Virus record (IMG/VR): IMGVR_UViG_3300044946_000048
Coordinates: 1-64,000 of that record
Reading direction: 5' to 3' (one strand)
Length of the DNA: 64,000 bases
Source of the DNA: a virus
Below, piece after piece: positions 10,183-29,215 of this stretch (positions are counted from its first letter, which is position 1; the number at the start of each line of letters is the position of its first letter). Position numbers and translations under genes: made by a program. The notes under the pieces are model-generated. The model did no database searches and was not told the DNA's origin. It saw only the letters and a list, made by a program, of their open reading frames with translations.

Positions 10183-10231
10183 CTCTCCTTGAAAGAGTAA
10201 TCTGGGGTGTGTTCAAGGCACACCCCTGATT
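10183..10231 (-). promoter_or_regulatory. Twin-hairpin kissing-loop element (copy 1), upstream of a NUMOD3-like remnant
   Basis: GGGGTGTG-CCTTGAA-CACACCCC followed by CTCT-TTCAAGG-AGAG; the two loops are complementary. Confidence 0.7.
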
Positions 10232-10274
10232 AGTATACCATAGTTCATGAGGCTATGGGAATAGTTATGCCACC

Positions 10275-12162
10275 CTACTGGATAGCCGGGACCGAGTCGA
10301 TGTAACGAATACGCTGAGTATTCGCACCACGAGCCGGAGGAAGTGTTACTGTTTGATGGCCAAATGTTACTCGTTCTTTCGAACGGGATCGGTCATTTCT
10401 GCCGATCTCTTACAGTTTCGTTTCCTGTAAGAGCAGACTATCGCATCGCCCCGTAGGGCGTTCTCTCGCTTAGTCGTTCACGGTGCCTTTCGGCTTCCGC
10501 CTTGTTTCCATTTCAGGGTTCAAGTCAATCAGAGAGAATTTTCTAACACTAGATTACGCTAGTGCGAGTCCACGGTTGCTGTCGCAACCCTTAAACTTAT
10601 ATGAGCACCATCCGCCGATTGTTCCCGTCGGATCATATGAAGATTCTGGGGCCTTGTCTACGACCTTGCAATCTATAGTTCTCCAATTACCGTCTCCTAG
10701 TTCCGTATCACCTGCAACGCCTAGCCATACGCCGATCATTGCGTAATTACCAAATACATAGGTACGATAAGCTGTCTTACCGCTTCCCTGGTAATTCGTT
10801 GTGGTCGTCACGAATGGTGTCTGACGGAAGGTGATGTTTGTGCCAGGAAGTTCGATATCCATGGTTTGGTCACTGCCAGCCATCTTGTCGAACTTGTCCA
10901 TCATTGCGTACTTCCACAAGTCAACGATTGAGTTGTTCACTGTCGTTGAGTTATAGATGTCACCCAATGTGTTCGGGCTAACTGCGCCGTAGAACCTGCC
11001 CCTCTTGCAAGGTAGCACGTTCTTGCTTACCAACTGTTGCTTCAACTCACGAACTGTTGCCAAATCGAGAGTGTAAGGTGAAGTTAGCAAGCTGCTCTGG
11101 TTAACCTGAGAGTCAACGCTTGACAAACCTGCGCTGTCGGCAACGGCTGAATATAGTTCAGAGATGCTCTGACCAGCCTGGTATCCTAGTTCAACTCCAC
11201 TGTTTCCGCTCAAGTCGTCGATGGCTGACGCCAAAACGAATGAACTGAAGTTCGTGTAGTTGTTCCCAAAATGTGTTTAGGTATCCTGTATCACCACAGG
11301 AACGCTCTCGTAGTCGCCTACGAGTTCAGACTCTCTCTTCACGCCTTGCGACGTGCCTGACATATTAGTCGTTACGGATGCGGGCTTGTTGAGGGACTTC
11401 ATTAGAAGATGCAGCTTCATACGCTCTTCAGGGGCTACCCGAGGTAGTCTAATATAACGTAATGCCGTCTTCGCTTGTTCCTTCTTAATTACGAGATAGG
11501 GAAGAACCGCTAAAATCAAGAGTTCTTGATTTTCTCTTCTCTCCATTTTCCACTGATAACAAACCTTCTTTGCGAAAGTGTTGCTACGTTGGGATAACGG
11601 TCGGTAAGACTGACCGAAATTGGATACCAGCCACTTCATCAGTTTCACTGAAGTGTTGGAAACTCCTATCTGTAAATCGAACGCGGGATATGGATTATTA
11701 TTCCTATCGTATATCATAGTCCGGCTAATGGAAAAGTATCCTTCTCCATCTAGCATAGCGGCTAGATAAGCTAATTTCGATTTATCTTTTGTAATCATTT
11801 CAAGCTTGCCTTTCCTCGGTATTGTCTGTTATTATACAGAGTTTCACCGATATAGTCAAGTTTAATGTGAGCAGAATTGTTTACTCACCAATCTGAGCAG
11901 GAGCACTCAACTGACCTACGAATTCAGGTGCGCCGATCACGCCGTCTGCTGACTGCGTTGTGTCTCCGGTCAATGTGTCGTATTGGAAGAACTGACGGTT
12001 GATACCGCTGTTCATAGCCTGTGTACGACGTTCTGCGCATTCCACGAATGCGTCAGTCTGACCCTTAAGGTTCGGAATCAATTCCTTATCGAAAATGATT
12101 GCCTGAGCCGTAAGGATATTTCCTACGTTTGCTGCTGAGGGATTGCTCCCGCCGCCTGCCAT
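10275..12162 (-). CDS. Major capsid protein (N4-gp56-like/HK97 fold), three exons: 12162-11883, 11266-10594, 10359-10275 (345 aa spliced)
   Basis: Follows the scaffold gene; removing both introns restores ...AQIGE-W-NNYTNFS... and ...GWCSYK-F-HQTVTLPP...RIRYIDSVPAIQ*. Confidence 0.88.
10360..10593 (-). ncRNA. Group I intron (ORF-less, 234 nt) in the capsid gene
   Basis: 5' splice after U with P1 AGUU/GACU; P3 TTCTCTC/GAGAGAA; P7 GACTA/TAGTC; terminal G; reading frame restored on splicing. Confidence 0.88.
11267..11882 (-). mobile_element. Group I intron (616 nt) with LAGLIDADG endonuclease in the capsid gene
   Basis: P1 GUGAGU/GCUCAC with U.G at the splice site; P/Q ATATCGGTGAAA/AATACCGAGG; R GTAACGACTA; S AAGAGAGAGTC; terminal G. 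Confidence 0.9.
11277..11798 (-). CDS. Intron-encoded single-motif LAGLIDADG homing endonuclease
   Basis: LAYLAAMLDGEGYF motif and ILPYLVIKKEQA-type C-terminus. Confidence 0.9.
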   Translation of the reverse strand: MITKDKSKLAYLAAMLDGEGYFSISRTMIYDRNNNPYPAFDLQIGVSNTSVKLMKWLVSNFGQSYRPLSQRSNTFAKKVCYQWKMERRENQELLILAVLPYLVIKKEQAKTALRYIRLPRVAPEERMKLHLLMKSLNKPASVTTNMSGTSQGVKRESELVGDYESVPVVIQDT

Positions 12163-12205
12163 AGTAGTTTACCTCTAGCGTGAGCCTCTAGAAAAGCTTC
12201 TAGGG

Positions 12206-13345
12206 TTATGACTTGCCAAACTTGCGGGAGTTATAATCAGCAATCGCTCTTTCAATTTGCGGACGAGTAGATGGATTTGCCATCTTTTCCCGCAACGTCT
12301 TGCCGTCCCACTTGTTTATCTCAGCCATCGTGATCGTTAGCGGCTCGCTCTGTGTTCCCGGACGAGAACCTGAGTTCTGTCCAGGGACAATGCCGCCATT
12401 GACCCCCGGTCTCGGAGTTTCTGGAACCGGATTAACCGGAACCACAACTTGTGCCGGAACAGTTGGCACAACCGTCGCTACAGGCTGTGCTGCTGCTGGT
12501 GGTACTACTACTGGTGTTGGCTCCGGATTAACCGTAGGTGCAACAGCCACGACTGGTCCCTCCACCGGGGCCAGTTCTGTGTCCTTCAAAACCAAAAACG
12601 CTCTCTCCAAATTGTCGAGAGTCCAATCCAATTGATTGGCCTTAAAATAGTCCGTGAAAGCAATCTGATTAGCTTGACACGGTTTGTAGTCTTTTGCATG
12701 CCTCTGTAAGAACTGATACGATACCAATTCTTCCTTGGCCTTCTGTTCTGCTATAGCCGCCTTACGACGGTCTTCCTGTAGCAACGCTGTCTGAGCAGCA
12801 AACGCCTTTGCCGGATCGGTGTTCTTTGAATCCTCGATAGCCGCTGCTATCTGAGCATCTGTCAAAGGAGCAATCTGAGCCGCTGCGTTCTGCTGTGGCG
12901 TCTTGTACGTAATCTTTTGGTTCTTGATTCGATGGAACGCACGGGTTGCCTGAGTGTGCGCCTCGATCATCTTCTCTCGAAGCTTCTCTTCGGACTCGGC
13001 TTCCAAGTGAGTAGGTCGGCCCAGAGGCTTACCATCTTCATCTGTGATCTGATAGTCCGCAACATATCGCTTCGGAACAACCGGAACCACGGGTGCTACG
13101 ACGGCTGGCACGACTGGTGTTTCCACAACAGGTGCAGGTGCTGGCGCAACCACTGCTGGCTGCGGAACTAGCTGTTGTGATACGTGTGCCGCTGCATCCA
13201 CCTCAGCCCGGGTTCTGCCTTGCAAGAGAGCTATCACAGCCTCACGCATACCGGGTTGAGTCATCTGCTGTCGCATCTCTAAGCCTTTCCAGGCTGCGAT
13301 ATCTGCGAGTGTTAAGTTCTCAGGTGTTACTATTCTGTCTGTCAT
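12206..13345 (-). CDS. Capsid scaffolding protein
   Basis: A/P/V-rich, helical, immediately upstream of the capsid gene. Confidence 0.6.
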   Translation of the reverse strand: MTDRIVTPENLTLADIAAWKGLEMRQQMTQPGMREAVIALLQGRTRAEVDAAAHVSQQLVPQPAVVAPAPAPVVETPVVPAVVAPVVPVVPKRYVADYQITDEDGKPLGRPTHLEAESEEKLREKMIEAHTQATRAFHRIKNQKITYKTPQQNAAAQIAPLTDAQIAAAIEDSKNTDPAKAFAAQTALLQEDRRKAAIAEQKAKEELVSYQFLQRHAKDYKPCQANQIAFTDYFKANQLDWTLDNLERAFLVLKDTELAPVEGPVVAVAPTVNPEPTPVVVPPAAAQPVATVVPTVPAQVVVPVNPVPETPRPGVNGGIVPGQNSGSRPGTQSEPLTITMAEINKWDGKTLREKMANPSTRPQIERAIADYNSRKFGKS

Positions 13346-13662
13346 TATCTATTGCCCTTCGGAGCGTTAAGCCCCACACTATTCTGTACCTGTTCTTGCT
13401 TACCTGTCTCGATTTGCCAGGTAATAGAATTCAGGATCAGTGTACGAAATTCATTGAAATCCCGAGCCCGAGTGTGAAGAAATTTAATCTTGCGATCATA
13501 TCCTTCATCACCCGGATTCAGGTTGATAGCTTCTGCGGTAGCCCGTTTACAAGCGGCTTCCATGATCTCAACCAAAACTGCGTAGCCCGGCTGAGATGCC
13601 AAAGCTGCAAGTGAAATTTTCTCGATCTGTTGCAACTCATCACTAAGTAGTGGTACGGCCAT
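13345..13662 (-). CDS. Hypothetical protein between portal and scaffold
   Basis: AAAGGA RBS before ATG 13662; position conserved in P22/N4-like head modules. Confidence 0.6.
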   Translation of the reverse strand: MAVPLLSDELQQIEKISLAALASQPGYAVLVEIMEAACKRATAEAINLNPGDEGYDRKIKFLHTRARDFNEFRTLILNSITWQIETGKQEQVQNSVGLNAPKGNR

Positions 13663-13675
13663 TGTATTCCTTTCT

Positions 13676-15787
13676 TTAAAGCGTCGTGGTGCTACCAAAG
13701 CCTACGTTGCCTGGTTCTCCACTGATTTCGCTGTCCATAGCATGCTCGGTTGCTGAACGGAGAACTTCCGCTCCAGCCTTTCCAAGCTGCTTCTGGTCTT
13801 CCAAAGTCTGATCCTGTAAGAACTTCTGTTGCTGCTGTTGCTGCTGCGCCTTCAACTGGCTCGCCTGCATTGCTGCTGGTGAATTTGCATCATAACGTTG
13901 CTGCTGTTCCGGTGTCATCTTCACCAAAAAGTCCTGACTGAATTTCCATCCAGCGGCATCTGTAAAGGCTTTGAAAATAGCAACAGCGTCAAATGTCCAA
14001 TGAGCATCGTTCACGCTCTTAACGAACGTGGGATTGTTGAGCAATTGGATTATTATAGGCAGCGCCTGGGCCATTTCTTTCTTAGCACCAAGCTTTGCTC
14101 CTGCTAGAACTTCATACTCGTACTTAGCCTTACGGAAGTCGATATGATCGACCATGTAGTCCGCTCCAACTTCCTCGCCTAGAACACGACGAAGAACTGA
14201 TGTTGGAAGCAGTCTGTTATTCAACTCATCCATCGTATACAACCAAGGCTCGTAAACCTGACGAACGAATCTCATCGTCGGTCCATCTAGTCTTGATGCA
14301 TTTGCCTGGATAACCGCTGCGGCTCCCGTGCCCGAACGCATACCAGTGCCGCGACTACTACTAGTCGTAGCTCCCTGCATGACTTGTTCGTTTGCACCAG
14401 AAGATGATGCAGCGTCTGACTTCGCCTGCTGTATGAACTGCCAGGCTTCGGCTGGCACCGGAGGCATCTGCAAGAATGCAAATGCTGCTCGAACGTCATC
14501 ATCTACGTCGATGATGCCGCCCTGCTTCCAACGTGTCTGTTGCGTTGGAACGTTCATGCCCTTCTTGCGAACGGCTGTAGGCTGTAATCCATAAGCGAGC
14601 AACCCGAGTGCAAGGTTCGTTACGCCTTGCTCAACGATTTGTTCACTTCCGATTAATAGCCCAAGGCCCTGTCCGTAAAACGTGTCCGGAAGATTTCTCC
14701 AGTTTGCACTGAAGAACGGCTTCTTTCTATACGGGTTCGCTTCGTTGCGAATAAGAATGTTCTTGGCGTTGAACGTAAGAACCACGATAACCTTCTCGTT
14801 GTCCCAACGCTCCAACAATTCCATGTTGGCCTGCAAAGGATCAGCAGACGTTTTGAAGTTCCTCGGGAGAGCGTGCTGTAAATAGCCACGCATTCCTTCC
14901 GGAATCGTCATGGTAATGTTGTCCGGTCCTGTCTGAGGATCGGTTAAGAAAAATTGCTTTAGTACATTCTCTGGTGGAATGTCATAGCCAGGAATATCAC
15001 GTAGACGGTTCAAGTCTTCATAGGTGACATAGTCACGATAGATAACCCATTTAGCCTCTCGGATATCTCCGACGCGGCATCCCGGGTCAACTAGAACTGT
15101 ACGAATGTCGCAGGCTTTAATCCAAGGATGAGAAATAAGAACATCATCCATGTAGATTTCATAGTCATCTGAATCCACCGTATCAATCAGGGGAGTCTTA
15201 ACGGTCAGATTCAAATCTACTGGCTCAGCCTTGCGACGAAAATTTTCAACGTGATCGGTATATTGAAGATAGCCCCACTTGAATATCGTGGTGCCGAACA
15301 GAGCCATCTGATCCAGTCCGCGCTCTGTATTCTCTTCGAACTTCATGTCCCACAACTGCGCTGAGAACAACGCAGTCTTAGCACGAGTTACCGCTGGCTT
15401 TGTACCCGGCCTCGGTCGAAGCAAGAATGGCGGGTCTTCATAGAAGAGCCCTTCAAGCATCTTCGGAACGATGGTCGCAATGTGATTCGATAGCGTATAC
15501 TTCGGAACGCCGGAGGATGCTCCTACTCCGCCGTCAAAGATTCCGCTCGTCATCGGACTCTGCAACAATGTGTCCGCTGTCGTCCACCATGAAGCCCACT
15601 GATTGATGTTGGCGTAGTTATCCGCCATTGACGCATCATCCAATACCAGCTTCAGAGCAGCCTTATCGCTGTACTTGTAAACACCCGTCTTCGGATCACG
15701 TGTGATATCCTCGGACGTTATCTCGCCTACAGGAGTCACGGCCAATGCTTCGAGTGCTGCGGCAGCCTGCTTGTCTAGTGGTTCCAT
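13676..15787 (-). CDS. Portal protein
   Basis: 703 aa after TerL; FGTTIFKWGY, VLVDP, NPYRKKPF...FYGQG, GMRSGTGA motifs and Q-rich C-terminus typical of P22-like portals. Confidence 0.85.
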   Translation of the reverse strand: MEPLDKQAAAALEALAVTPVGEITSEDITRDPKTGVYKYSDKAALKLVLDDASMADNYANINQWASWWTTADTLLQSPMTSGIFDGGVGASSGVPKYTLSNHIATIVPKMLEGLFYEDPPFLLRPRPGTKPAVTRAKTALFSAQLWDMKFEENTERGLDQMALFGTTIFKWGYLQYTDHVENFRRKAEPVDLNLTVKTPLIDTVDSDDYEIYMDDVLISHPWIKACDIRTVLVDPGCRVGDIREAKWVIYRDYVTYEDLNRLRDIPGYDIPPENVLKQFFLTDPQTGPDNITMTIPEGMRGYLQHALPRNFKTSADPLQANMELLERWDNEKVIVVLTFNAKNILIRNEANPYRKKPFFSANWRNLPDTFYGQGLGLLIGSEQIVEQGVTNLALGLLAYGLQPTAVRKKGMNVPTQQTRWKQGGIIDVDDDVRAAFAFLQMPPVPAEAWQFIQQAKSDAASSSGANEQVMQGATTSSSRGTGMRSGTGAAAVIQANASRLDGPTMRFVRQVYEPWLYTMDELNNRLLPTSVLRRVLGEEVGADYMVDHIDFRKAKYEYEVLAGAKLGAKKEMAQALPIIIQLLNNPTFVKSVNDAHWTFDAVAIFKAFTDAAGWKFSQDFLVKMTPEQQQRYDANSPAAMQASQLKAQQQQQQQKFLQDQTLEDQKQLGKAGAEVLRSATEHAMDSEISGEPGNVGFGSTTTL

Positions 15788-18684: not shown

Positions 18685-19201
18685 ACTTCCTCAAATATTC
18701 TCGTACATCCGTTTCTATTCCTGGGAAACTTTCCAAATACCCAATAATCACATTACAGGTGTGATGAACGAGGCTTCTCAAATTTCCTGTTTTGTGGTCG
18801 TGATCCCAACAAGCCGCACCAACTTTCTCAGGGAGTGGCTTATGGCAAACATCGCACAATCCTTCCTGCTTTAAATACTGTTCCTGTTTAGCTTGCTGCA
18901 TTGCCGGAACATATGTCGCCGGAGCACCGTTCTTACGACGATAAGTCGCAACAGTGTTGTCTCCGCGTTTTCCTTTGCGGCGAGCCGAAACGTTCCTTGC
19001 TTCGCAAACTTTGCAAGCTATCTGTCGCCCGTATCTTAGACTTCTTCTAAGATTATTACCTGAGCGTTCTTCTTGGTTGCCACATTCGCATTGACAAATC
19101 CAATGATAGTCACGCCCTGCGCCGTTGTTTCCGACTCTCTCACCTAATTTGAGAACCCGCAGTTTCCCGAACCTTCTGCCTACCAAATCCTCGCATCTCA
19201 T
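18644..19201 (-). CDS. Endonuclease VII-type homing endonuclease
   Basis: DLVGRRFGKL...WICQCECG DNA-binding N-terminus; QEGLCDVC...DHDHKTGNLRSLVHHTCN. Confidence 0.85.
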   Translation of the reverse strand: MRCEDLVGRRFGKLRVLKLGERVGNNGAGRDYHWICQCECGNQEERSGNNLRRSLRYGRQIACKVCEARNVSARRKGKRGDNTVATYRRKNGAPATYVPAMQQAKQEQYLKQEGLCDVCHKPLPEKVGAACWDHDHKTGNLRSLVHHTCNVIIGYLESFPGIETDVREYLRKYELERQSQFGSSQ

Positions 19202-19204
19202 GTT

Positions 19205-19279
19205 ATTCTCCTTAACAGAATCGACAAGGGGCGTGGTTAAGGCACGCCCTCAAGTCTGCGCTTCGGTAGCTAACCGAAG
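19205..19279 (-). promoter_or_regulatory. Twin-hairpin kissing-loop element (copy 2)
   Basis: GGGCGTG-CCTTAAC-CACGCCC then ATTCT-GTTAAGG-AGAAT, directly before ATG 19201. Confidence 0.75.
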
Positions 19280-19283
19280 AATC

Positions 19284-19476
19284 TTAATGCTTGAAACCCT
19301 TCATCGTAGCAGCGAAGTTCGCCATATGCTGGATGTGAGAGTTACCTGAATTCTTTGCGTGCTCCAACTTCTCAGCCGGAATCGGTTTATCTTCGGAAAC
19401 ACCTAGAGCACGATGCAAACCACCTTTCCTAAAGGTGGTGGAGGGCGCGATATAAAGATACATTATGCTTCGCCAT
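19284..19476 (-). pseudogene. Small basic phage protein interrupted by a +1 frameshift
   Basis: AAGGAG RBS and ATG 19476 give MAKHNVSLYRALHHL then CTT TAG; the +1 frame continues RKGGLHRALGVSEDKPIPAEKL. Confidence 0.55.
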
Positions 19477-20077
19477 GTCCACTTCTCCTTGATAAATAAA
19501 TTTTGTTCAACCACAAATCAAATTCTTCTATAGTCATATCTAGGCGACTTTGGTTACAGCGACGATGCGCTGGCAACACGTTATCCACGGTATTACTTCC
19601 GCCTCGTGCCATAGGCACAACATGATCCAAGCTCAATCTCCAAGGCGACCTCAAGTCTAACAACGTCTTCTCGCCACAAAGATGACAATTAAAATCACAA
19701 CGTTCGACAACCGATTTCCATTCTTCTACAGTTAAAGTAGAAACAACGCCTAACTCCGCTGCTCTAAGACGAGCTTTTACTACCGCAATAGAAAAAGGAT
19801 TAGAAGATTCTCGCCAACGACGATTTTCTTCCCGCGCCTTCTCAGGGTTCTTAGCTCTTCGTGCTCTAGTCGCCGCGTTAACTTGTAATCTATTTTCTTC
19901 CCGACGAGCCCACGGATTAATCTTCTCAAGCCAAAGATGTCCTCTTTTCGCACGACACTCATTGCTGGCTTTTCGAGTGCAATCCTTGCAACGATATTGC
20001 AATCCATCTGACGCAGTTTGATTCTTTTGAAAAGAATCTAACGGCAGTTCTCGCTTACAGTGACAACAAATCTTCAT
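19463..20077 (-). CDS. HNH homing endonuclease
   Basis: KICCHC...CKDC; CHLC...LDHVVPMARGGSNTVDNVLPAHRRCN. Confidence 0.88.
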   Translation of the reverse strand: MKICCHCKRELPLDSFQKNQTASDGLQYRCKDCTRKASNECRAKRGHLWLEKINPWARREENRLQVNAATRARRAKNPEKAREENRRWRESSNPFSIAVVKARLRAAELGVVSTLTVEEWKSVVERCDFNCHLCGEKTLLDLRSPWRLSLDHVVPMARGGSNTVDNVLPAHRRCNQSRLDMTIEEFDLWLNKIYLSRRSGHGEA

Positions 20078-20081
20078 ATCA

Positions 20082-20155
20082 ATCTCCCTAAAAGATGCGG
20101 TCTAGGAGCGTATTTAGGGTACGCTCCCGACCTACGCCTCGGTAATGAGCCGAGG
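20082..20155 (-). promoter_or_regulatory. Twin-hairpin kissing-loop element (copy 3)
   Basis: GGAGCGTA-CCCTAAA-TACGCTCC then ATCT-TTTAGGG-AGAT, before ATG 20077. Confidence 0.75.
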
Positions 20156-20167
20156 AATATTTAAATT

Positions 20168-20813: not shown

Positions 20814-20814
20814 A

Positions 20815-21144: not shown

Positions 21145-21501
21145 TCAATGGATAGAATGCTTGTTTATGTAGTCAATAGCACTCTGTAAAATTATCACAT
21201 CTTCGAAAAACAACCCTAAAGCAGTGTTACAATTCGAGCAAAGTAAATCTCGATTCTCGCCTGTTTTGTGGTTGTGGTCAACATGTGGACTACTCATTGG
21301 TTTGAAGCAAATAGCACAGCAGTTGTTTTGCTTTTGAACTTTTGACTCGAACTCTTCTAAAGTCATGTTATGTCGCTTCAACAAGTGGTTGATACGACTT
21401 CTACGACGACCTTTCTCAACATATTCAGGATGAGTTCGCCTATATTCTTTTATATACGCGAGAAGTCTTTCTTTGTTGTTCTTGTGCCAGCTATCGCTCA
21501 T
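21145..21501 (-). CDS. Endonuclease VII-type homing endonuclease
   Basis: QNNCCAIC...HVDHNHKTGENRDLLCSNCNTALG; ATG 21501. Confidence 0.88.
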   Translation of the reverse strand: MSDSWHKNNKERLLAYIKEYRRTHPEYVEKGRRRSRINHLLKRHNMTLEEFESKVQKQNNCCAICFKPMSSPHVDHNHKTGENRDLLCSNCNTALGLFFEDVIILQSAIDYINKHSIH

Positions 21502-21504
21502 GGT

Positions 21505-21551
21505 TTCCTCTGCAAAGGAATGCTTGGGGAGCGTTGCAGCGCCCCCAAGCA
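21505..21551 (-). promoter_or_regulatory. Twin-hairpin kissing-loop element (copy 4)
   Basis: GCTTGGGGGCG-CTGCAA-CGCTCCCCAAGC then TTCCT-TTGCAG-AGGAA, before ATG 21501. Confidence 0.75.
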
Positions 21552-21658
21552 AAATTTAATTCCGACTATAACGGACTAAAGGTCCTGGGTTCCACAGGTC
21601 TCGGAGCAGTGGAGGGGAGCAATCTATAGCTGCTCCCCGTCACGCTCTACCGAATTGA

Positions 21659-22497: not shown

Positions 22498-22815
22498 TCA
22501 ATTTCGAACCAACGCAGGGTCAACAAAGCCTGCATAATACTGTGGAGAAGCATCGAACTCTTCCTCCAACTCTCTATGACAGTTGGCACAAACAAGTAAA
22601 CACTTGCTGAGTTCCGCTTTCAACTTATCCCAACTCTGCATCATATTAAGCCCGCCGCGAGCGTAACACGATAAATCTTTTTCGAATCGGCGGTCGTGGT
22701 GAAACTCAAGTGCTCGTTGGCACTTGTCGTATCCGCAACGCTGGCATTTCCCGCCCTTGTGCTCGATACACTGCAACTTCCTGCGACGCCGAAATTCCGT
22801 TCCTTTGCAAATCAT
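22498..22815 (-). CDS. HNH endonuclease
   Basis: KGGKCQRCGYDKCQRALEFHH...KCLLVCANCHRE; ATG 22815. Confidence 0.85.
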   Translation of the reverse strand: MICKGTEFRRRRKLQCIEHKGGKCQRCGYDKCQRALEFHHDRRFEKDLSCYARGGLNMMQSWDKLKAELSKCLLVCANCHRELEEEFDASPQYYAGFVDPALVRN

Positions 22816-22817
22816 GA

Positions 22818-22879
22818 TACTCTCCAGTAAAGAGTAAACGAGGCGTGTTACTGGCACGCCTCATCTAAATGTAGCTACA
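22818..22879 (-). promoter_or_regulatory. Twin-hairpin kissing-loop element (copy 5)
   Basis: TGTAGCTACA palindrome, then GAGGCGTG-CCAGTAA-CACGCCTC, then TACTCT-TTACTGG-AGAGTA. Confidence 0.78.
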
Positions 22880-23582: not shown

Positions 23583-23672
23583 TGGTCGGGGCGAGAGGAA
23601 TTGAACCTCCAAGGGAGTTTGTCCACCCGCTTCCAAAGCGGGACCGCTGCCAGATTACGGACCTACACCCCG
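23583..23672 (-). tRNA. tRNA-Pro(TGG) with long variable arm
   Basis: CCCGC-TTTGGAA-GCGGG; extra arm GGA-CAAAC-TCC; CCA. Confidence 0.8.
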
Positions 23673-23680
23673 ATTAAAAT

Positions 23681-23755
23681 TGGTTCCCGCGTGTGGACTC
23701 GAACCACAATGAACGCTTTCAGAGAGCGTCATCCTGCCAATTGAATGACATGGGA
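23681..23755 (-). tRNA. tRNA-Gln(CTG)
   Basis: ACGCT-CTCTGAA-AGCGT; CCA. Confidence 0.9.
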
Positions 23756-23762
23756 ATAAAAT

Positions 23763-23837
23763 TGGTTCCGGCGGATCGATTCGAACGATCATGACAAGTT
23801 TCAAAGACTTGCAGCCTGCCCGTTGGCTGACATCGGA
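23763..23837 (-). tRNA. tRNA-Gln(TTG)
   Basis: CAAGT-CTTTGAA-ACTTG; CCA. Confidence 0.9.
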
Positions 23838-23872
23838 ATAGAAACATATATGTCACTTTCAGCAACTAAGAT

Positions 23873-23947
23873 TGGAGCACAAGGTTGGAATCGAACCAAC
23901 GAGTATTCGTTTTGCAGACGAACGCCTTTCCACTTGGCTACTCATGC
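23873..23947 (-). tRNA. tRNA-Cys(GCA)
   Basis: TTCGT-CTGCAAA-ACGAA; U73; CCA. Confidence 0.9.
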
Positions 23948-23953
23948 TTAAAC

Positions 23954-24050
23954 TGGAGGATAATGTAGGATTCGAACCCACGGTGCCGGAATGTTTACCG
24001 GACACTTCTGTTTTCAGGACAGACGGCATAATCCGCTCGCCCAATTATCC
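23954..24050 (-). tRNA. tRNA-Ser(TGA)
   Basis: TCTGT-CCTGAAA-ACAGA; long variable arm; CCA. Confidence 0.85.
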
Positions 24051-24059
24051 TTAAAATTT

Positions 24060-24150
24060 TGGCGGAAGGTTTGTGATTTGAACACAAACAACCTTGCGGT
24101 TGACTTAGGTTTAGCAAACCTATACGTTAGCCTGGTTCCGTCAACCTTCC
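24060..24150 (-). tRNA. tRNA-Ser(GCT)
   Basis: TAGGT-TTGCTAA-ACCTA; long variable arm; GCCA. Confidence 0.88.
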
Positions 24151-24509
24151 GTATTCTTAGGTATCATAGCCGGATGAGGCTTTTGAAATTTCTTAACCCA
24201 TCCCGCTTTTGCCTCTTCACTCCACTCAGTAGGCTTTCTTCCAGCCTTACGATTGCAATTGAGATGTGAATAAGCAATATTCTGTAAATCCCAAAACAAG
24301 TTAGGAGAGTTGTCAAGCCACGGTATCTTGTGCTCTATACTAAACTCTTCAACCGTTTCTATTTTCTTAAGGCAGCGAAAACAACTATCTTTTCCGCACT
24401 CTCGTGCTAACGAAAATAAAAGAATTCGATGAAGTCTTGTCGCTGCCGTTGTATAAGGCATGCCTAACTGCGCAAGCTCCTTATCTTTATTCCTATAAAT
24501 TCTAGGCAT
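24141..24509 (-). CDS. tRNA-array HNH endonuclease (paralog of 26402..26890)
   Basis: CFRC...SIEHKIPWL...NIAYSHLNCN; ATG 24509; stop codon overlaps the 5' end of tRNA-Ser. Confidence 0.8.
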   Translation of the reverse strand: MPRIYRNKDKELAQLGMPYTTAATRLHRILLFSLARECGKDSCFRCLKKIETVEEFSIEHKIPWLDNSPNLFWDLQNIAYSHLNCNRKAGRKPTEWSEEAKAGWVKKFQKPHPAMIPKNTEG

Positions 24510-24573
24510 CTTGCCCTCCTCTAAAAGGCAAGTCGGGGATGTTAGAGGCATCCCCAACCTTAATGTACGTACA
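24510..24573 (-). promoter_or_regulatory. Twin-hairpin kissing-loop element (copy 6)
   Basis: TGTACGTACA, then GGGGATG-CCTCTAA-CATCCCC, then CTTGCCTT-TTAGAGG-AGGGCAAG-ATG. Confidence 0.78.
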
Positions 24574-24580
24574 AACTTAT

Positions 24581-24870
24581 TGGCAAACAATAGCCAGGAT
24601 TCTGTTCGGCTTGCGCCGCGACTATCATCCGTCTTTGCCCTTAACCCGGCTATCGTCGCGCTAGACGCGCTCCAGCCCTATTTAAGGTTGCTCCAAGAGT
24701 GGAGTGCCCAGACTTGAATGACAATGCTATGAGAACAGAGGCCCGAAGGCTTGTATGAGAAGCATTGTACCTGGCCTTACCCGTCCGCTTACGCGGCCCG
24801 CAACTTCCACGGCTCTTTGTCTAGTGGAGTCCTGAACTTACCTCGGTTTCCCGCGATAGTCTAGTTTACC
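24581..24870 (-). ncRNA. rnpB: RNase P RNA (catalytic subunit), phage-encoded
   Basis: P1 GGTAAAC/GTTTGCC; P2 GACTATC/GATAGTC; CR-I GAGGTAAGTTCAGGACTCC; GGAGCAA...AAATAGGG; CR-V AACAGAATCCTGGCTA forming P4 with a bulged U. Confidence 0.85.
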
Positions 24871-24871
24871 A

Positions 24872-25417
24872 TTAAGACTTATCTAAACCGCCCAATCCTG
24901 TTGAGCCGCCAGTAAGAAAATTCATCAATGTGTCTACTACTGCTTCCGAATCCGAAACATCCATCTGCTGGCATGTTTGAAATCTATCGTCTGCCCCAAC
25001 CGTGATGTCGCTCTCCGGTCCAATGAAACCATAATACACGTGGCCTAACTTCTCGTCAACAGTTAAAATTCCAATGATGCGATTACCTAGCCGAGCGCCA
25101 TTTATTACTAGGTTATGCTTTTCATAAACCGTCGCGGCGCTGAACGGGATTATGCCGTCTTTTGTTTTCGGCTCTTCCTTGTAACTGAACACTACCGGGT
25201 TATCTTCCTTCTTAACCGTGGTCGCATCCGTCAAGAAATCTCCGAATGTAGCAGTCGTTCGCTCTGCATTCAACACCATGTGAATGACAGTAAAATCCCG
25301 CGAACCACAACTTGCGATATTATACTCAACAACAGGCTTCGGCTCGGGTTGCTGTGGCATAACTGGTGTTGCCAGCGCCAACATAACTCCGAGGATTATG
25401 GCACGGATCGCTTTCAT
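24872..25417 (-). CDS. Secreted/periplasmic hypothetical protein
   Basis: Signal peptide MKAIRAIILGVMLALA. Confidence 0.6.
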   Translation of the reverse strand: MKAIRAIILGVMLALATPVMPQQPEPKPVVEYNIASCGSRDFTVIHMVLNAERTTATFGDFLTDATTVKKEDNPVVFSYKEEPKTKDGIIPFSAATVYEKHNLVINGARLGNRIIGILTVDEKLGHVYYGFIGPESDITVGADDRFQTCQQMDVSDSEAVVDTLMNFLTGGSTGLGGLDKS

Positions 25418-25512
25418 GTTGCATCCTAAGAGCACCTGATATACAAGGCATTAGTGCTCTGCCGCCTACAAACGCCTAGTAAACTAGGCACGTAGTCCCC
25501 TGCTCGGTAAAC

Positions 25513-25588
25513 TGGAAGGCACACTCGGAATCGAACCGAGAATCTACTCTTTAGGAAAGAGTCGCATTGTCCCTTGTGCTATGCGCCC
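25513..25588 (-). tRNA. tRNA-Arg(CCT)
   Basis: ACTCT-TTCCTAA-AGAGT; CCA. Confidence 0.88.
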
Positions 25589-25596
25589 ATAAAACT

Positions 25597-25671
25597 TGGA
25601 GGGCCGTCCCGGAATTGAACCGAGGTCTCTTCGTTAGAAGCGAAGCGCACTGTCCGTTGTACGAACAGCCC
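25597..25671 (-). tRNA. tRNA-Arg(TCT)
   Basis: CTTCG-CTTCTAA-CGAAG; CCA. Confidence 0.9.
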
Positions 25672-25677
25672 TTAAAC

Positions 25678-25751
25678 TGGCAGACCGTGGATGAATCGAA
25701 CACCCGCTTCTTGATTTGGAGGCAAGAAGACTACCACTATCTTAACAGCCT
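25678..25751 (-). tRNA. tRNA-Trp(CCA)
   Basis: Loop CTCCAAA; G73; CCA. Confidence 0.82.
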
Positions 25752-25758
25752 GCGAAAC

Positions 25759-26109
25759 TTATTTGATTCCTAATTTCTTCAGCAACAAGTAATTCTTGAT
25801 TGCGTAATATGCTTCCCCGGCTGCAACGACTCCGGAATAAATCATACCAGCTAACCAGACCTTGCTGCCTATAAGCAATCCGATGAATAGATACGCCGCG
25901 CCGCTCAACCAGGTTGCGAACGACTGTCCAACCTTACTAAACAGCCAACGCATTATCGGATTGCCTTCAACAAAACCCTTATTAGCCCCGAGGCCAATCA
26001 TCGTAGTAATACCGTCACCGATGATTGCTAGCAAGCCGAGAACTAAAACACCGAACAGCGCTAACCACGGACCCGCTGGCACAGACATACCGATTGGTGT
26101 AATCATCAT
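25759..26109 (-). CDS. Multi-TM membrane protein (DUF5658-like)
   Basis: DxxTTxxGL...EGNPIM motif with hydrophobic helices. Confidence 0.6.
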   Translation of the reverse strand: MMITPIGMSVPAGPWLALFGVLVLGLLAIIGDGITTMIGLGANKGFVEGNPIMRWLFSKVGQSFATWLSGAAYLFIGLLIGSKVWLAGMIYSGVVAAGEAYYAIKNYLLLKKLGIK

Positions 26110-26287
26110 GCCTCGCTCAGAAATTGTTCACATATTGCCCATGCGGACTTCATCATCCAAGCACGAGCATTGTTGATTCGAACTCGCTCTCCGGTTCTTG
26201 CATCGAACACGGTCAACGTAATCTTCGGTGGAAGATTGAGCCGATAACCAGAAAACGTTCGTTCAACTATTCTATCTCTCATAAAAT

Positions 26288-26362
26288 TGGAGCGGGACAT
26301 CGGATTCGAACCGACCCTCTCAGTTTGGAAGACTAATGTGCTACCACTAACACTAGTCCCGC
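26288..26362 (-). tRNA. tRNA-Gly(TCC)
   Basis: TTAGT-CTTCCAA-ACTGA; TCCA. Confidence 0.9.
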
Positions 26363-26371
26363 TTTGAAACT

Positions 26372-26445
26372 TGGAGCGACGTGCGGTAATCGAAACCGCG
26401 CCTAGTGCTTGGCAAGCACTCGTTCTACCACTATACCAACATCGC
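26372..26445 (-). tRNA. tRNA-Gly(GCC)
   Basis: AGTGC-TTGCCAA-GCACT; TCCA. Confidence 0.9.
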
Positions 26446-26890
26446 TCGGAACTTTTTCTCTCGTATAGTGCTGGCACTCTTTACATAGAGTATGATATCC
26501 AGACCAGTGAGAAGAATTTTTACTAAACTGCACCGTTGGGAGAAACTTCTTATGTCTATTGCACCAACTCATTCCTGACGGGCATTTAATTCTCAATTTC
26601 GAGAACTGCCCGTCTGGACCTGCTGGACGATCAGGCCTGTTACACCAAGTATGAGAAAATGCAATATTCTCCAAATCCCAAAATAATTTTGTGTCTACGT
26701 GCAGCCAAGGTTTCTTATGTTCTATTGTAAGGTCTTCGACCTTCACTATCTTAGACGTACACTTAAAACAAACATCTTCGTTTAACTTTTGAAGACACCT
26801 AAACAAAAGTATCTTTTTAAGTCTCCCCGAGGCTGTACCCCAAGGCATTCCTAGCTGTGATGCCTTCACAGCATTTGAAGTTCCTGACAT
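26402..26890 (-). CDS. tRNA-array HNH endonuclease with C-terminal zinc motif
   Basis: CFKC...TIEHKKPWL...NIAFSHTWCN...WCNRH...CKEC; reads into tRNA-Gly(GCC). Confidence 0.8.
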   Translation of the reverse strand: MSGTSNAVKASQLGMPWGTASGRLKKILLFRCLQKLNEDVCFKCTSKIVKVEDLTIEHKKPWLHVDTKLFWDLENIAFSHTWCNRPDRPAGPDGQFSKLRIKCPSGMSWCNRHKKFLPTVQFSKNSSHWSGYHTLCKECQHYTREKVPSDVGIVVERVLAKH

Positions 26891-26911
26891 GGATACCTTC
26901 CTGTCTTTAAC

Positions 26912-26986
26912 TTGCGCCAAATGGGAGTCGAACCCAATATCACTAGTTTATGAGGCTAGTATGATTATCCGTTTCACTCTGCCGCA
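26912..26986 (-). tRNA. tRNA-CAT (Met/fMet/Ile2 unresolved), no encoded CCA
   Basis: Loop CTCATAA; T-arm GGGTTCGACTCCC; one acceptor-stem mismatch. Confidence 0.65.
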
Positions 26987-26990
26987 AACT

Positions 26991-27066
26991 TGGTCGCTCT
27001 GGTTGGAATCGAACCAACTATGCACGGTTTATGAGACCGCTGCCTCATCCGGCTAGCTTCAAAGCG
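26991..27066 (-). tRNA. tRNA-Met(CAT)
   Basis: GCGGT-CTCATAA-ACCGT; CCA. Confidence 0.85.
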
Positions 27067-27072
27067 AAAACT

Positions 27073-27156
27073 TGGTACCCCGCGAGAGATTTGAACTCCC
27101 ATGACCGAAGTCGCCGCGTTCTAAGCGCGGTGTGTCTGCCGTTCCACCAGCAGGGC
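27073..27156 (-). tRNA. tRNA-Leu(TAG)
   Basis: CCGCG-CTTAGAA-CGCGG; variable arm; CCA. Confidence 0.9.
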
Positions 27157-27268
27157 ATAAAATCAATTCCAGAACAAACTAATTTGAAACTTTAAATCTT
27201 TTACAAACCAGGCGACAAGTATTGTGATGAATACTACGCCACCGATGACTTCAAATATGTTCATAAAC

Positions 27269-27342
27269 TGGTACTCGGTGGGAGACTCGAACTCCCTTTG
27301 CTGGATTGAAAGTCCAACGTATTACCCATATACGAACTGAGC
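27269..27342 (-). tRNA. tRNA-Glu(TTC)
   Basis: TTGGA-CTTTCAA-TCCAG; CCA. Confidence 0.88.
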
Positions 27343-27348
27343 AAAATC

Positions 27349-27430
27349 TTGAGCCCTTGCTTTCCTTACAGTCCGGCAAGTTAGCATTCAGCCGCAATCG
27401 TGTAAGCGACGTGCTGAAGCCTCGGCTCAA
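27349..27430 (-). ncRNA. Unknown three-way-junction RNA with complementary loops
   Basis: Outer stem TTGAGCC/GGCTCAA; two hairpins carrying CTTACA and TGTAAG. Confidence 0.5.
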
Positions 27431-27443
27431 ACTCAAATAAACT

Positions 27444-27517
27444 TGGTACCCGGAAGCGGAATCGAACCGCTGCTACATCCGTGAGAGGGATGCGTCCTAC
27501 CGTTAAACGATCTGGGC
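27444..27517 (-). tRNA. tRNA-Glu(CTC)
   Basis: CATCC-CTCTCAC-GGATG; CCA. Confidence 0.9.
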
Positions 27518-27554
27518 ACTGGCGGGCTCCGCCTTTCGACTCGGCCCGTGAAAC

Positions 27555-27632
27555 TGGCGGAATGGATGGGATTCGAACCCACGATAATCTGTCGTGACAG
27601 GACAGTGCCATTGGCCGCTAGGCGACCACTCC
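27555..27632 (-). tRNA. tRNA-Asp(GTC)
   Basis: CTGTC-CTGTCAC-GACAG; GCCA. Confidence 0.92.
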
Positions 27633-27641
27633 GTATAAAAT

Positions 27642-27716
27642 TGGAGCTAAGTGATGGAAATCGAACCATCGTTTCAGCTTTACCAAAGCTGCGTCTTACC
27701 ATTAGACGAACCAAGC
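27642..27716 (-). tRNA. tRNA-Thr(GGT)
   Basis: CAGCT-TTGGTAA-AGCTG; CCA. Confidence 0.88.
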
Positions 27717-27720
27717 AAAC

Positions 27721-27794
27721 TGGAGCCAAGTAAAGGAATTGAACCTTTCTTTGTGGTTTACGAAACCACCGTATTACCGCTATACGAACAAGGC
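27721..27794 (-). tRNA. tRNA-Thr(CGT)
   Basis: GTGGT-TTCGTAA-ACCAC; CCA. Confidence 0.88.
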
Positions 27795-27802
27795 ATAAAC
27801 TC

Positions 27803-27878
27803 TGGAGCACCGCATTCGATTCGAACGAATGTGACGAAGGTACAAGCTTCGTATACTAGACCGCTATATGAGCAGTGC
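27803..27878 (-). tRNA. tRNA-Thr(TGT)
   Basis: CGAAG-CTTGTAC-CTTCG; CCA. Confidence 0.88.
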
Positions 27879-27888
27879 TCGAAACTAA

Positions 27889-28024
27889 TTCCAGGCAACA
27901 ATCGCGTCGAGAGTCTCTTGAAGAGGGAGTCGAACCCTGCGCCCGATTTTACTCGGGCACCCAGACCATCCTGGCTATCCCCACGTGGCGGGGATAGAAG
28001 TATCTCAAAACTACGGCACTGGAA
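27889..28024 (-). ncRNA. Y RNA-like molecule with a four-hairpin tRNA-like insert
   Basis: TTCCAG-TGCCGTAG-stem-ATACTTC...TTGTTGC-CTGGAA; same scaffold as the RNAs upstream of the Ro60-like gene; contains a GGTTCGACTCC T-arm. Confidence 0.65.
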
Positions 28025-28031
28025 AATTGTA

Positions 28032-28127
28032 AGTCGCAGGGCAACAGGCGCATCAGGATAGTGTGGGGATTTCACCCACGTTCCTTTTAGGCAAAGAAGT
28101 AACCCGACACTAACGGCACCTACGACT
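28032..28127 (-). ncRNA. Y RNA-like molecule
   Basis: AGTCGTAGG-TGCCGTTAG-TGTCGGG-TTACTTC...CCTGATG-CGC-CTGTTGC-CCTGCGACT. Confidence 0.68.
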
Positions 28128-28132
28128 AAAAT

Positions 28133-28208
28133 TGGCTGTGTCCCTCGGATTCGAACCGAGACCCTAGGCATTAACAGTGCCCTATCATACCAGTTAGACC
28201 AGAACACA
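28133..28208 (-). tRNA. tRNA-Asn(GTT)
   Basis: GGGCA-CTGTTAA-TGCCT; GCCA. Confidence 0.88.
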
Positions 28209-28218
28209 ACGTAAACTT

Positions 28219-28293
28219 TGGAGGCCCCACTCGGATTCAAACCGAGGTTAACGGTTTCGAAGACCGTAGTCCTATTCGCTGAACGATAGAGCC
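28219..28293 (-). tRNA. tRNA-Arg(TCG)
   Basis: ACGGT-CTTCGAA-ACCGT; CCA. Confidence 0.85.
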
Positions 28294-28298
28294 AAACT

Positions 28299-28373
28299 TG
28301 GAGGACCGTCGGGGAGTCGAACCCCGCTCCTGGCGTTCGTAGCGCCATGCATTGTCCGATATACGAACAGTCC
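28299..28373 (-). tRNA. tRNA-Arg(ACG)
   Basis: TGGCG-CTACGAA-CGCCA; CCA. Confidence 0.9.
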
Positions 28374-28384
28374 GCAAAAATTAA

Positions 28385-28457
28385 TTGAACGCATTCTCCG
28401 TCGTAACACAGAGACACAGGCACGAAGGTTACGATGTTCGTGTCGCCTTACGTTCAA
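28385..28457 (-). ncRNA. Unknown three-way-junction RNA with kissing loops
   Basis: Outer stem TTGAACGTA/TGCGTTCAA; loops containing CGTAAC and GTTACG. Confidence 0.55.
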
Positions 28458-28460
28458 AAT

Positions 28461-28536
28461 TGGTAGCCCGTAAGAGAATCGAACTCTTCCGGTCTGGGTG
28501 TAAACCAGATGCATACGACCAGTTTGCTAACAGGCT
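28461..28536 (-). tRNA. tRNA-Val(TAC)
   Basis: TCTGG-TTTACAC-CCAGA; CCA. Confidence 0.9.
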
Positions 28537-28601
28537 ACAGAAAATAGCGGCGTACTGCGATACAGGGCTTTCAACCTGCATACGAATTTTGCCGCGAAAT
28601 T

Positions 28602-28675
28602 TGGTGGACCGTGGGGGAGTCGGACCCCCAACGCTTCGGTGCAAGCGAAGCAGTATCCCATTTACCTAACAGCCC
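28602..28675 (-). tRNA. tRNA-Ala(TGC)
   Basis: CTTCG-CTTGCAC-CGAAG; G3.U70; CCA. Confidence 0.9.
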
Positions 28676-28682
28676 ATAAAAT

Positions 28683-28757
28683 TGGTTCCCAGGGATGGAG
28701 TCGAACCATCGGCCTCTTCTTTATCAGAGAAGCATTCTGCCGCTGAACTACCCGGAA
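28683..28757 (-). tRNA. tRNA-Ile(GAT)
   Basis: CTTCT-CTGATAA-AGAAG; CCA. Confidence 0.88.
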
Positions 28758-28764
28758 ACGAAAC

Positions 28765-28854
28765 TGGTGGAAGCGAAAGGATTCGAACCTTTTAGTGCCG
28801 CAAGGGCATTCTGTTTTACAGACAGACACGACCCGCCGTCTTCGCCGCACTTCC
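28765..28854 (-). tRNA. tRNA-Tyr(GTA)
   Basis: TCTGT-CTGTAAA-ACAGA; variable arm; CCA. Confidence 0.9.
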
Positions 28855-28867
28855 ACTGAAACTTGTC

Positions 28868-28956
28868 TGGGAACCGACGGGGGATTCTCCCGTCCCATCC
28901 TACGGGCCGCTAGCAGGTATCCGTAAGCATTCAATCTATCTCGAACTGCGTTCCCA
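28868..28956 (-). ncRNA. Aberrant cloverleaf tRNA-like RNA
   Basis: TGGGAAC/GTTCCCA stem, D-like arm, CTTACGG/CCGTAGG arm with 15-nt loop, GACGGG-AGAATCC-CCCGTC arm; no free CCA. Confidence 0.45.
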
Positions 28957-28963
28957 CGAAACT

Positions 28964-29038
28964 TGGTACCCCGACCGAGACTCGAACTCGGACATTCTCC
29001 TTAAAAGGGAGTATTGCTGCCACTCGCATCCTCAGGGT
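28964..29038 (-). tRNA. tRNA-Lys(TTT)
   Basis: CTCC-CTTTTAA-GGAG; CCA. Confidence 0.82.
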
Positions 29039-29156
29039 GTAAAATCTGTTCTAAAGATATCTTCCCTCTATCGAATTCCAATGTCCTTTGTCTTACAATG
29101 GTGTGGGCCTTAACTGCGTTCCTACGTGCTGCTTCACTATGTTTAACCGATCTCAT

Positions 29157-29215
29157 ATACCCTCCCTAAAGGGTAGTCCGGGGTGTTAGGGCACCCCGAA
29201 CCCGATGTAGCTACA
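29157..29215 (-). promoter_or_regulatory. Twin-hairpin kissing-loop element (copy 7), upstream of a short remnant ORF (ATG 29156)
   Basis: TGTAGCTACA, then CGGGGTG-CCCTAA-CACCCCG, then TACCCT-TTAGGG-AGGGTA-T-ATG. Confidence 0.75.

Follow-up and report, generated by a model that had tools for sequence, protein, structure and literature searches.

We describe a twin-hairpin RNA leader that stands before nuclease genes in the 88.6-kb IMG/VR viral record IMGVR_UViG_3300044946_000048, of which we analyzed positions 1-64,000 (64,000 nucleotides (nt); hereafter, the window). Each copy consists of a first hairpin (H1) and a second hairpin (H2) that holds the Shine-Dalgarno sequence (SD), and the loops of both are complementary to each other. 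The structure covaries among relatives, it is specific to nuclease genes, and it belongs to the cassettes that carry them. We consider it likely that free-standing homing-endonuclease cassettes carry this element as their 5' leader, and that it works in cis as a translational repressor that keeps the nuclease scarce. A preliminary description of the window had reported seven twin-hairpin copies on the minus strand, with perfectly complementary loops that differ between copies, and this is how we read them.

At the seven minus-strand sites, H1 is G+C-rich, with 7-9 bp and a 6-7-nt loop that starts with CC (CT in copy 4), and it is followed, after a short linker, by an H2 of 4-8 bp, the loops of H1 and H2 being exact reverse complements in 7/7 copies. 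From copy 1 to copy 7, the loop pairs are CCTTGAA/TTCAAGG, CCTTAAC/GTTAAGG, CCCTAAA/TTTAGGG, CTGCAA/TTGCAG, CCAGTAA/TTACTGG, CCTCTAA/TTAGAGG and CCCTAA/TTAGGG. The SD (GGAG/AGGA) spans the H2 loop and the H2 3' arm in all seven. The start codon had been placed 0-4 nt past the SD hairpin in six copies, and we find an ATG at that distance (7-8 nt past the H2 loop) in all but copy 1, which has TAG there. We call hairpin 0 the accessory hairpin or palindrome located 5' of H1.

The core of copy 1 lies at 10183..10226, with H1 at 10226-10204 (loop CCTTGAA), a linker, and H2 at 10197-10183 (loop TTCAAGG, SD AAGGAG). Its hairpin 0 (10238..10258; CCATAG / CCTCATGAA / CTATGG) contains the self-complementary TCATGA in the loop and lies between the two boxes of a weak promoter-like match, TTCCCA-18-TATACT. 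Cassette 2 (18685..19283) comprises hairpin 0 (19279-19261), H1 (19249-19229), H2 (19221-19205) and an EndoVII-type gene (18644-19201, ATG 19201), while cassette 3 (19476..20167) has hairpin 0 at 20155-20137, H1 at 20128-20104, H2 at 20096-20082 and an HNH gene at 19463-20077 (ATG 20077). In cassette 4 (21154..21583), hairpin 0 (21575-21561), an H1 with one bulged T (21548-21524, loop CTGCAA) and H2 (21520-21505, loop TTGCAG) lead an EndoVII gene (21145-21501, ATG 21501). Copy 5 (22498..22879) starts with the palindrome TGTAGCTACA (22879-22870), followed by H1 (22862-22840), H2 (22836-22818) and an HNH gene (22498-22815, ATG 22815) whose family match is in PHROGs only. Copy 6 (24141..24573) has the palindrome TGTACGTACA (24573-24564), H1 (24555-24535), H2 (24532-24510) and an HNH gene (24141-24509, ATG 24509). 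Finally, copy 7 (29001..29215) presents TGTAGCTACA at 29215-29206, a few nt past the CCA end of tRNA-Lys, then H1 (29198-29179), H2 (29175-29158), and an open reading frame (ORF) of 51 aa (29001-29156, ATG 29156). All these genes are on the minus strand.

Five of the seven copies (2 to 6) lead HNH or EndoVII-type genes, as the preliminary description had it. The other two had been taken for leaders of remnants. For copy 1 we agree: a 26-aa GIY-YIG C-terminus lies behind it (10114..10191, minus strand; 58% identity to residues 149-174 of the L024:17328-17855 protein, E 1.5e-4) and, given that it also lacks a start codon, copy 1 is a deleted cassette. An akin GIY-YIG nuclease occupies the same place in relatives, ~7-8 kb downstream of the terminase start. 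For copy 7 the assignment is unproven, its ORF matching no family. Regarding the palindrome reported upstream of most copies, TGTAGCTACA is exact at copies 5 and 7 and TGTACGTACA at copy 6, but copies 1-4 have a stem-loop.

A strict scan of the 88.6-kb genome (stem 1 of at least 7, stem 2 of at least 3, loop complement of at least 6, linker of up to 12) returned ten loci, the seven claimed and three unrelated ones, versus a mean of 1.8 and a maximum of 5 in 40 dinucleotide shuffles scanned in the same manner. A covariance model built from copies 1-3 alone, run over the window with filters off, recovered copies 5, 7, 6 and 4 with 37.5, 25.4, 19.0 and 16.1 bits, respectively (E 7e-8 to 0.027), and its remaining matches at E<0.1 were two H1 readings on the opposite strand. 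A second covariance model (64 sequences) found exactly the same seven copies in the window. The claim that no copy lies on the plus arm or before a structural gene agrees with both models, which gave zero leader matches on the plus arm of the window. Beyond 64 kb, a default-filter model search of the whole record and scripted scans found zero leaders. We also considered two hairpin pairs with 6-7-nt complementary loops on the minus strand of the tRNA array (28421-28442 and 26840-26871), and discarded them because neither leader model matches them; the pair at 28421-28442 has GGAG and an ATG behind. A search of the whole window against Rfam 15 at gathering scores gave tRNAs only, and no match with E up to 5 overlapped a leader in the region of copies 2-6 (19000-24700). 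The novelty of the motif therefore stands as far as Rfam goes.

The minus-strand arm of the window contains the terminase (15788-18097), the portal (13676-15787) and a 34-gene tRNA array, and the plus-strand arm begins at ~32 kb. Run X1, from a soil metagenome, contains the entire window and may be its source, and no RNA run is listed as containing this DNA. There is no close phage in GenBank: megablast of positions 18000-25000 against GenBank phages gave zero matches, and tblastn of the terminase gave distant ones only, with 23-25% identity. In IMG/VR, the terminase alone as query found one locus, and an alignment of terminase homologues reached more, allowing us to fetch 80 loci (1.04 Mb; terminase identity 31-41%, with one locus at 90%). 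At E <= 0.01, model R1 gave 64 matches, all on the terminase strand: the window has 5, and the other 59 are spread over 37 of the 80 loci. Of the 39 whole records searched with model R2, 28 have the motif, as do all eight records that are at least 90% complete, with 2 to 6 copies each. The seven members of the family described for the window are the highest count seen, but the family is not private to this genome: the leader is clade-wide, in uncultured phages whose complete genomes mostly measure about 100 kb. Three phages (L057:3498, L063:8066 and window 21505-21548) share a sub-type with SD AGAGGA and the loops CTGCAA/TTGCAG, which scores low with both models (14-16 bits in the window), so the model searches undercount the family.

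Covariation was measured in A4, a model-made alignment of 58 distinct rows in which the loop-loop helix is written as a pseudoknot. The loop-loop helix, which the finding model does not encode, is paired in 98.7% of its cells; H1 and H2, which a model-fitted alignment favors, are paired in 98.2% and 92.3%. Over all cells, pairing reaches 96.9%, in comparison with 75.8% in shuffles and 41-57% with slid partners. Changes on both sides occur in 17 of the 20 pairs (five of seven in the loop-loop helix), and the covariation score is 0.562 versus 0.164 when shuffled, a value that none of 500 shuffles reached. Three loop-loop positions show all four Watson-Crick pairs (e.g. UA 22, CG 14, AU 11, GC 7). 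Whole loops are exact complements in 55 of the 58 rows, with 37 different loop-1 words, two further rows hold the complement within a 9-nt loop, and one (L053) fails. This last copy, L053:732 (28.5 bits), has neither an ATG nor full complementarity and was counted as a miss. Another model match, L105 (E 7e-4), was dropped as false, with non-complementary loops and an ORF of merely 33 aa. These values bear out the earlier view of a covarying, structure-conserved element.

An independent pattern scan of IMG/VR, in which only GTGCC, CAC, CTCT and GGAGAG were fixed and five loop positions were left free, gave 70 unique matches. In 65 of them the five free positions are all complementary, an outcome expected by chance in 1/1024 for each match. 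Among the other five, one has four complementary positions and four have none or one; these four clear misses are also without an ATG within 14 nt.

G-U pairs are present in all three helices of A4, and every copy is in the sense orientation of the gene behind, which places the pairing in the mRNA. The spacing to the start codon is narrow too, with an ATG 6-12 nt past the start of the H2 3' arm in 62 of the 64 model matches. One could argue that the element acts instead at the DNA level, as a cruciform, a recombination site or a homing target site, since the leader marks the 5' edge of the insertion and perfect palindromes lie upstream. We give this reading hardly any credit: the G-U pairs in the three helices are strand-specific, the orientation is always that of the gene, and the sequence is free while the pairing is kept, which leaves no conserved sequence-specific site.

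The 62 model matches with an ATG correspond to 57 distinct proteins. By BLAST clustering, 39 of these group with the HNH and EndoVII proteins of the window and 9 are GIY-YIG, the rest being one HNH singleton, two family-less proteins and six that are short or cut. We scanned a set of 39 proteins for families (37 from the HNH/EndoVII cluster plus the genes of copies 4 and 6) and found phrog_1035 (endonuclease VII) in 31 and PF02945 in 23. Four members of the GIY-YIG cluster were scanned, and three gave the Pfam GIY-YIG family, two over the cut-off and one just under it (E 2.6e-4). We also fetched 16 model matches from outside the loci. Fifteen were real, 14 of them with perfectly complementary loops, and the genes at these 15 sites are ten HNH/EndoVII, one PD-(D/E)XK (PF11645, 9e-27), one VRR-NUC (2e-9) and three without a family. 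Regarding the pattern scan, its 53 distinct proteins of at least 90 aa include, by Pfam, 17 GIY-YIG, 15 Endonuclease_7, 2 MUG113/T5orf172, 1 PDDEXK_5, 1 AP2 and 1 HNH, and the commonest PHROGs among them are nearly all homing endonuclease, endonuclease VII or HNH. For ten less obvious proteins of this set, we obtained seven EndoVII/HNH assignments, one phrog_3322 (endonuclease), two PHROGs of unknown function and one without a match. No structural, replication or metabolic family had good support among the scanned leader-led proteins. The leader is nuclease-specific and common to at least five nuclease families. Enrichment before nuclease genes in other genomes, which the preliminary description had set beforehand as a test able to overturn its proposal, is what we found.

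Conversely, we asked which nucleases have the motif by cross-reading eight near-complete genomes, with 40 nuclease-domain matches above Pfam cut-offs. All 32 motif matches were on the terminase strand. On that strand, the motif was just upstream of 17 of 26 nuclease-domain matches (at G012:15604, a copy-4-like variant of the leader, seen by script only, comes in addition to these 17), and on the opposite strand it accompanied 0 of 14. The motif marks nucleases on one arm only, and not all of them there. In the window, the sole minus-strand nuclease-domain match without a leader is an HNH match at 26636-26770, with an ATG near 26890 and a plain SD. This leaderless HNH gene (26402-26920, minus strand) lies in the tRNA array and its 3' end enters tRNA-Gly (26372-26445). 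Six plus-strand nuclease-domain matches are leaderless as well (36689, 37960, 42383, 51008, 75059 and 81680, the last one below the family cut-off). We read the upstream 110 nt of four plus-strand genes with nuclease-domain matches (36440-36970, 37930-38340, 42212-42628 and 50885-51229) and found no leader; two of these genes (42212 and 50885) adjoin or overlap the ORF before them. Besides, we searched IMG/VR for distant homologues of the cassette 3 HNH protein (28-45% identity), and the twin hairpin was absent upstream of them in 11/11 loci read; the leader does not, therefore, track that protein family outside this phage clade.

Close relatives were informative about the boundaries of the unit. 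Locus L001 (~85% nucleotide identity) aligns to window 20490-20168, 19471-19284 and 18615-15018, and lacks the intervening parts. In L001, 2 nt separate the next ATG from the stop codon of the gene that ends at 20168, and TAATG forms the junction after that. At these two places, the window has hairpin 0, H1, H2 and a nuclease ORF (cassettes 2 and 3); the last 41 nt of the cassette 2 gene overlap the next gene and are outside the absent block. A 2113-nt contig from soil run X2, with few differences from the window, skips 21154-21583, that is, leader 4 and its gene, and has 32 other bases instead. A contig from run X4 follows the window as far as 19281, where it passes into an empty junction of the L001 type, part of gene 3 being retained. 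At cassette 5 (22396-22903), contigs from X2 and X3 leave the window sequence at about 22395 and 22904, the two edges of the cassette, with several hundred bases of unlike sequence; another insert probably occupies this site there. Downstream genes start within the nuclease ORFs, which provide their SD. Presence/absence polymorphism with intact flanks is what characterizes a free-standing homing-endonuclease cassette and, judging from the three sites at which close relatives lack both, leader and nuclease gene are gained and lost jointly, as a single cassette. The preliminary description had proposed a cis element of a mobile nuclease cassette as one possibility, and the joint absence of leader and gene at these sites agrees with it.

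The H1-H2 core is constant, and the sequences preceding it fall, by reading, into four types. Type A, found in relatives only, carries a near-consensus sigma70-like promoter (TTGACA-N17-TAAGAT with an upstream TG) 10-15 nt ahead of H1, with a spacer that is a hairpin too, being an inverted repeat centered on TGCA (examples at L056:7160-7222, L047:7500-7563, L088:8905-8966 and L057:5400-5463). Type B (copy 1) is a stem-loop followed by TATACTAAT; type C (copies 2 and 3) has AATATT, a stem-loop and CGCAGACT; and type D (copies 5-7) is a perfect palindrome of 10-12 bp, a few nt past the CCA end of a tRNA. Boxes with TATACTAAT or CAGACT adjoin H1 in many copies, and cassettes lie 30-90 nt behind the preceding stop codon or tRNA. 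Just upstream of copy 6, in the tRNA array, the minus strand at 24575-24700 partly matches the class A model of bacterial RNase P RNA (positions 213-367 of the model, with 27 bits versus a gathering score of 100, E 1.2e-5); the edge of the search range cuts the match off.

Nuclease cassettes with a type A module may bring their own promoter. The idea that the leader shelters toxic nucleases within a strongly transcribed operon cannot be the whole story, as several relatives have their own sigma70-like promoter just upstream. In the window itself (10000-29400), a sigma70 consensus scan gave 20 promoter-like sites versus 23.0 expected and a terminator scan gave 19 terminator-like sites versus 18.8 expected; with no excess of either, we make no promoter or terminator claim for the window. 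Weak promoter-like matches occur at copies 1 and 5 only, and a terminator-like H1 at copy 5 only. The leader could also serve RNA stability, processing or transcription, as a protective 5' or 3' hairpin, an RNase site between tRNA and mRNA, or a terminator, with the SD complementarity being secondary. H1 is indeed very stable and predicted in 7/7 copies, copies 5-7 are directly behind tRNA genes, and in promoter-bearing relatives H1 would be near the 5' end of the transcript. Nevertheless, a T-rich tail follows just one of the seven H1 hairpins, and such a role leaves both the covariation between loop 1 and the SD loop and the fixed distance to the ATG unexplained, so we regard it as very improbable.

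Under the translational repressor model that we favor, a stable H1 would present an anti-SD loop (CCnnnnA), and a weak H2 would expose the 5' half of the SD as part of its loop while its stem retains the 3' half. Pairing of the loops over 6-7 bp, as a kissing complex or a pseudoknot, would lock the SD twice, leading to poor 30S binding and to low nuclease synthesis whatever transcript carries the cassette. Leader and gene would move as one insertion unit, and the leader would be interchangeable between nuclease families. We infer the effect on translation from the location of the SD in a paired loop and stem. Loop-loop pairing is presumed to take place within one molecule, and the covariation fits cis and trans alike.

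Several observations weigh against this model. The distance between the H1 and H2 loops is 13-22 nt and some linkers have 0-3 nt, so that one molecule may be unable to accommodate a full H1, a full H2 and a 7-bp kiss at once; an H-type pseudoknot with an opened H2, or pairing in trans, would relieve the strain. ViennaRNA predicts H1 in 7/7 copies (z -2.2 to -5.3) but often prefers a slipped register for H2. We rejected this slipped H2 as a conserved fold: it can form in 87% of cells, yet it shows no covariation, with 483 of 500 shuffles equaling it. The sigma70-like promoter directly upstream in some relatives is something that a pure shield against read-through would not need. About a third of the same-strand nuclease-domain matches and all of those on the opposite strand have no leader, meaning that a leader is not required for tolerating a nuclease gene. 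Lastly, several leader-led products are without a recognized family (L028:5024, L046:7815, L097, L099, L101, L122 and the copy 7 ORF).

The strain of a kiss in cis, together with the fact that covariation fits trans pairing equally, brings up a homodimer, in which loop 1 of one leader RNA pairs with loop 2 of another and the two hairpins 0 pair with each other. In that case, SD masking would track transcript concentration, as a dosage brake, or would link two mRNAs. In favor of this, 20 of 75 copies have a self-complementary 6-mer in the loop of hairpin 0, versus 2.7 expected from loop shuffles, and 45 of 75 have a self-complementary 4-mer or longer there, versus 21.5 expected. The words vary by copy (TCATGA, TTATAA, TAATTA, TGATCA), which suggests RNA-RNA dimerization or a DNA palindrome function, and a loop palindrome has no intramolecular use. 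Retroviral dimerization sites are likewise hexanucleotide palindromes in apical loops that form kissing-loop dimers (PMC5874298). On the other hand, neighboring complementary loops on one chain have a large advantage in local concentration, copy 3 has no palindromic loop, and the hairpin 0 finder is crude, with several type D palindromes mis-assigned. Moreover, several relatives have hairpin 0 between the -35 and -10 hexamers of the promoter-like site, which would leave it outside the cassette's own transcript. Taken together, we see dimerization as an unlikely function of the leader.

A further reading is that the leader is a switch, opened at a set time by a phage or host factor, by temperature or by an upstream terminating ribosome, or else an activator in which the pseudoknot itself aids initiation. 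Activating pseudoknots beside a ribosome-binding site (RBS) are found in the IncB/IncI-alpha rep mRNAs. Six of the seven window copies have an intact ORF, five of them of a nuclease family, and must hence be made at some point; the location of cassettes shortly behind a stop codon or tRNA and the two alternative H2 registers are also compatible with a switch. However, beyond the SD and its complement, A4 has no conserved unpaired patch that could serve as a ligand or protein pocket, the loop sequences vary freely, and the paired bases are those of the SD itself. We therefore rate a switch or activator as doubtful, and constitutive repression in cis remains our preferred reading of the leader.

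To our knowledge, the few T-even cases described so far, with simple hairpins, are the only guide to how a phage can tolerate dozens of toxic homing endonucleases. The leader is one portable RNA module shared by nucleases of at least five unrelated families in many uncultured genomes, and its 37 loop words, almost all of them perfectly matched, make it one of the clearest natural cases of loop-loop covariation. Several ideas become testable with it: a general translational throttle for selfish nucleases, the exchange of regulatory leaders between mobile genes, and dosage control in bacteria through kissing interactions of mRNA, either within a molecule or between two. If the dimer reading were true, a selfish gene would carry its own copy-number or dosage sensor, a symmetric homodimer with three kisses, and bacterial viruses would have a counterpart to retroviral kissing-loop dimerization. 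In practical terms, the leader could provide synthetic biology with a compact, tunable and sequence-programmable RBS lock, and its sequence signature could help to flag free-standing nuclease cassettes, with their boundaries, in phage genomes from metagenomes.

Among known systems, several share one or another trait with the leader. The guanidine-II riboswitch (mini-ykkC) consists of two tandem G+C-rich hairpins near the SD whose loops pair with each other, as in our element, and has invariant ligand-binding ACGR loops. The leader differs in its 6-7-nt loops of free sequence that contain the SD, and we rejected membership in this class, given that none of the 37 loop-1 sequences is ACGR and there were zero Rfam matches. 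PeSL cassettes of T4-type phages, in which a promoter and a stem-loop flank novel ORFs, probably act as recombination and transcription units; they resemble the leader as modular regulatory units with mobile ORFs in plastic phage regions, but they have no known SD-pairing loop and are not known to be nuclease-specific. The T4-like late box is TATAAATA, and between H1 and H2 of the seven copies we found no promoter-like box, including this T4 motif, from which that of the clade may differ. The hexanucleotide palindrome in the apical loop of retroviral dimerization initiation sites (PMC5874298) is like that of many hairpin 0 copies; this likeness appears limited to the accessory hairpin, and the biology is unrelated.

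The closest parallel is in T-even-type phages. According to PMC3014915, I-TevI and mobE are repressed by structures that sequester the RBS, and such structures are predicted for I-TevII, I-TevIII and segB as well; hairpins of this type are also treated in PMC3073962. The hairpins of I-TevI, I-TevII, I-TevIII, Aeh1 mobE and T4 segB are, like the leader, cis helices that hold the SD directly before a homing-endonuclease gene, and the presumed purpose, a scarce nuclease, is shared. They are, however, single, local and particular to each gene, and the structure of I-TevI includes a late promoter, which leaves late transcripts without the 5' arm. We found no kissing-loop leader of homing endonucleases in the literature that we searched; the supplementary motif catalogues of PMC10690425 and PMC5737381 could list it unnamed. 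In the leader, as in the I-TevI class, the SD is predicted to lie in a helix before a homing-endonuclease gene, and both of its pairings covary. It departs from the T-even hairpins in being a cassette-borne module of two hairpins with a covarying 6-7-bp loop-loop helix. Cis sequestration of the SD before phage homing endonucleases is thus already known. What is new is the two-hairpin module with its covarying loop-loop helix and an accessory hairpin with a palindromic loop, the fact that at least five nuclease families share it, and its wide occurrence in a large clade.

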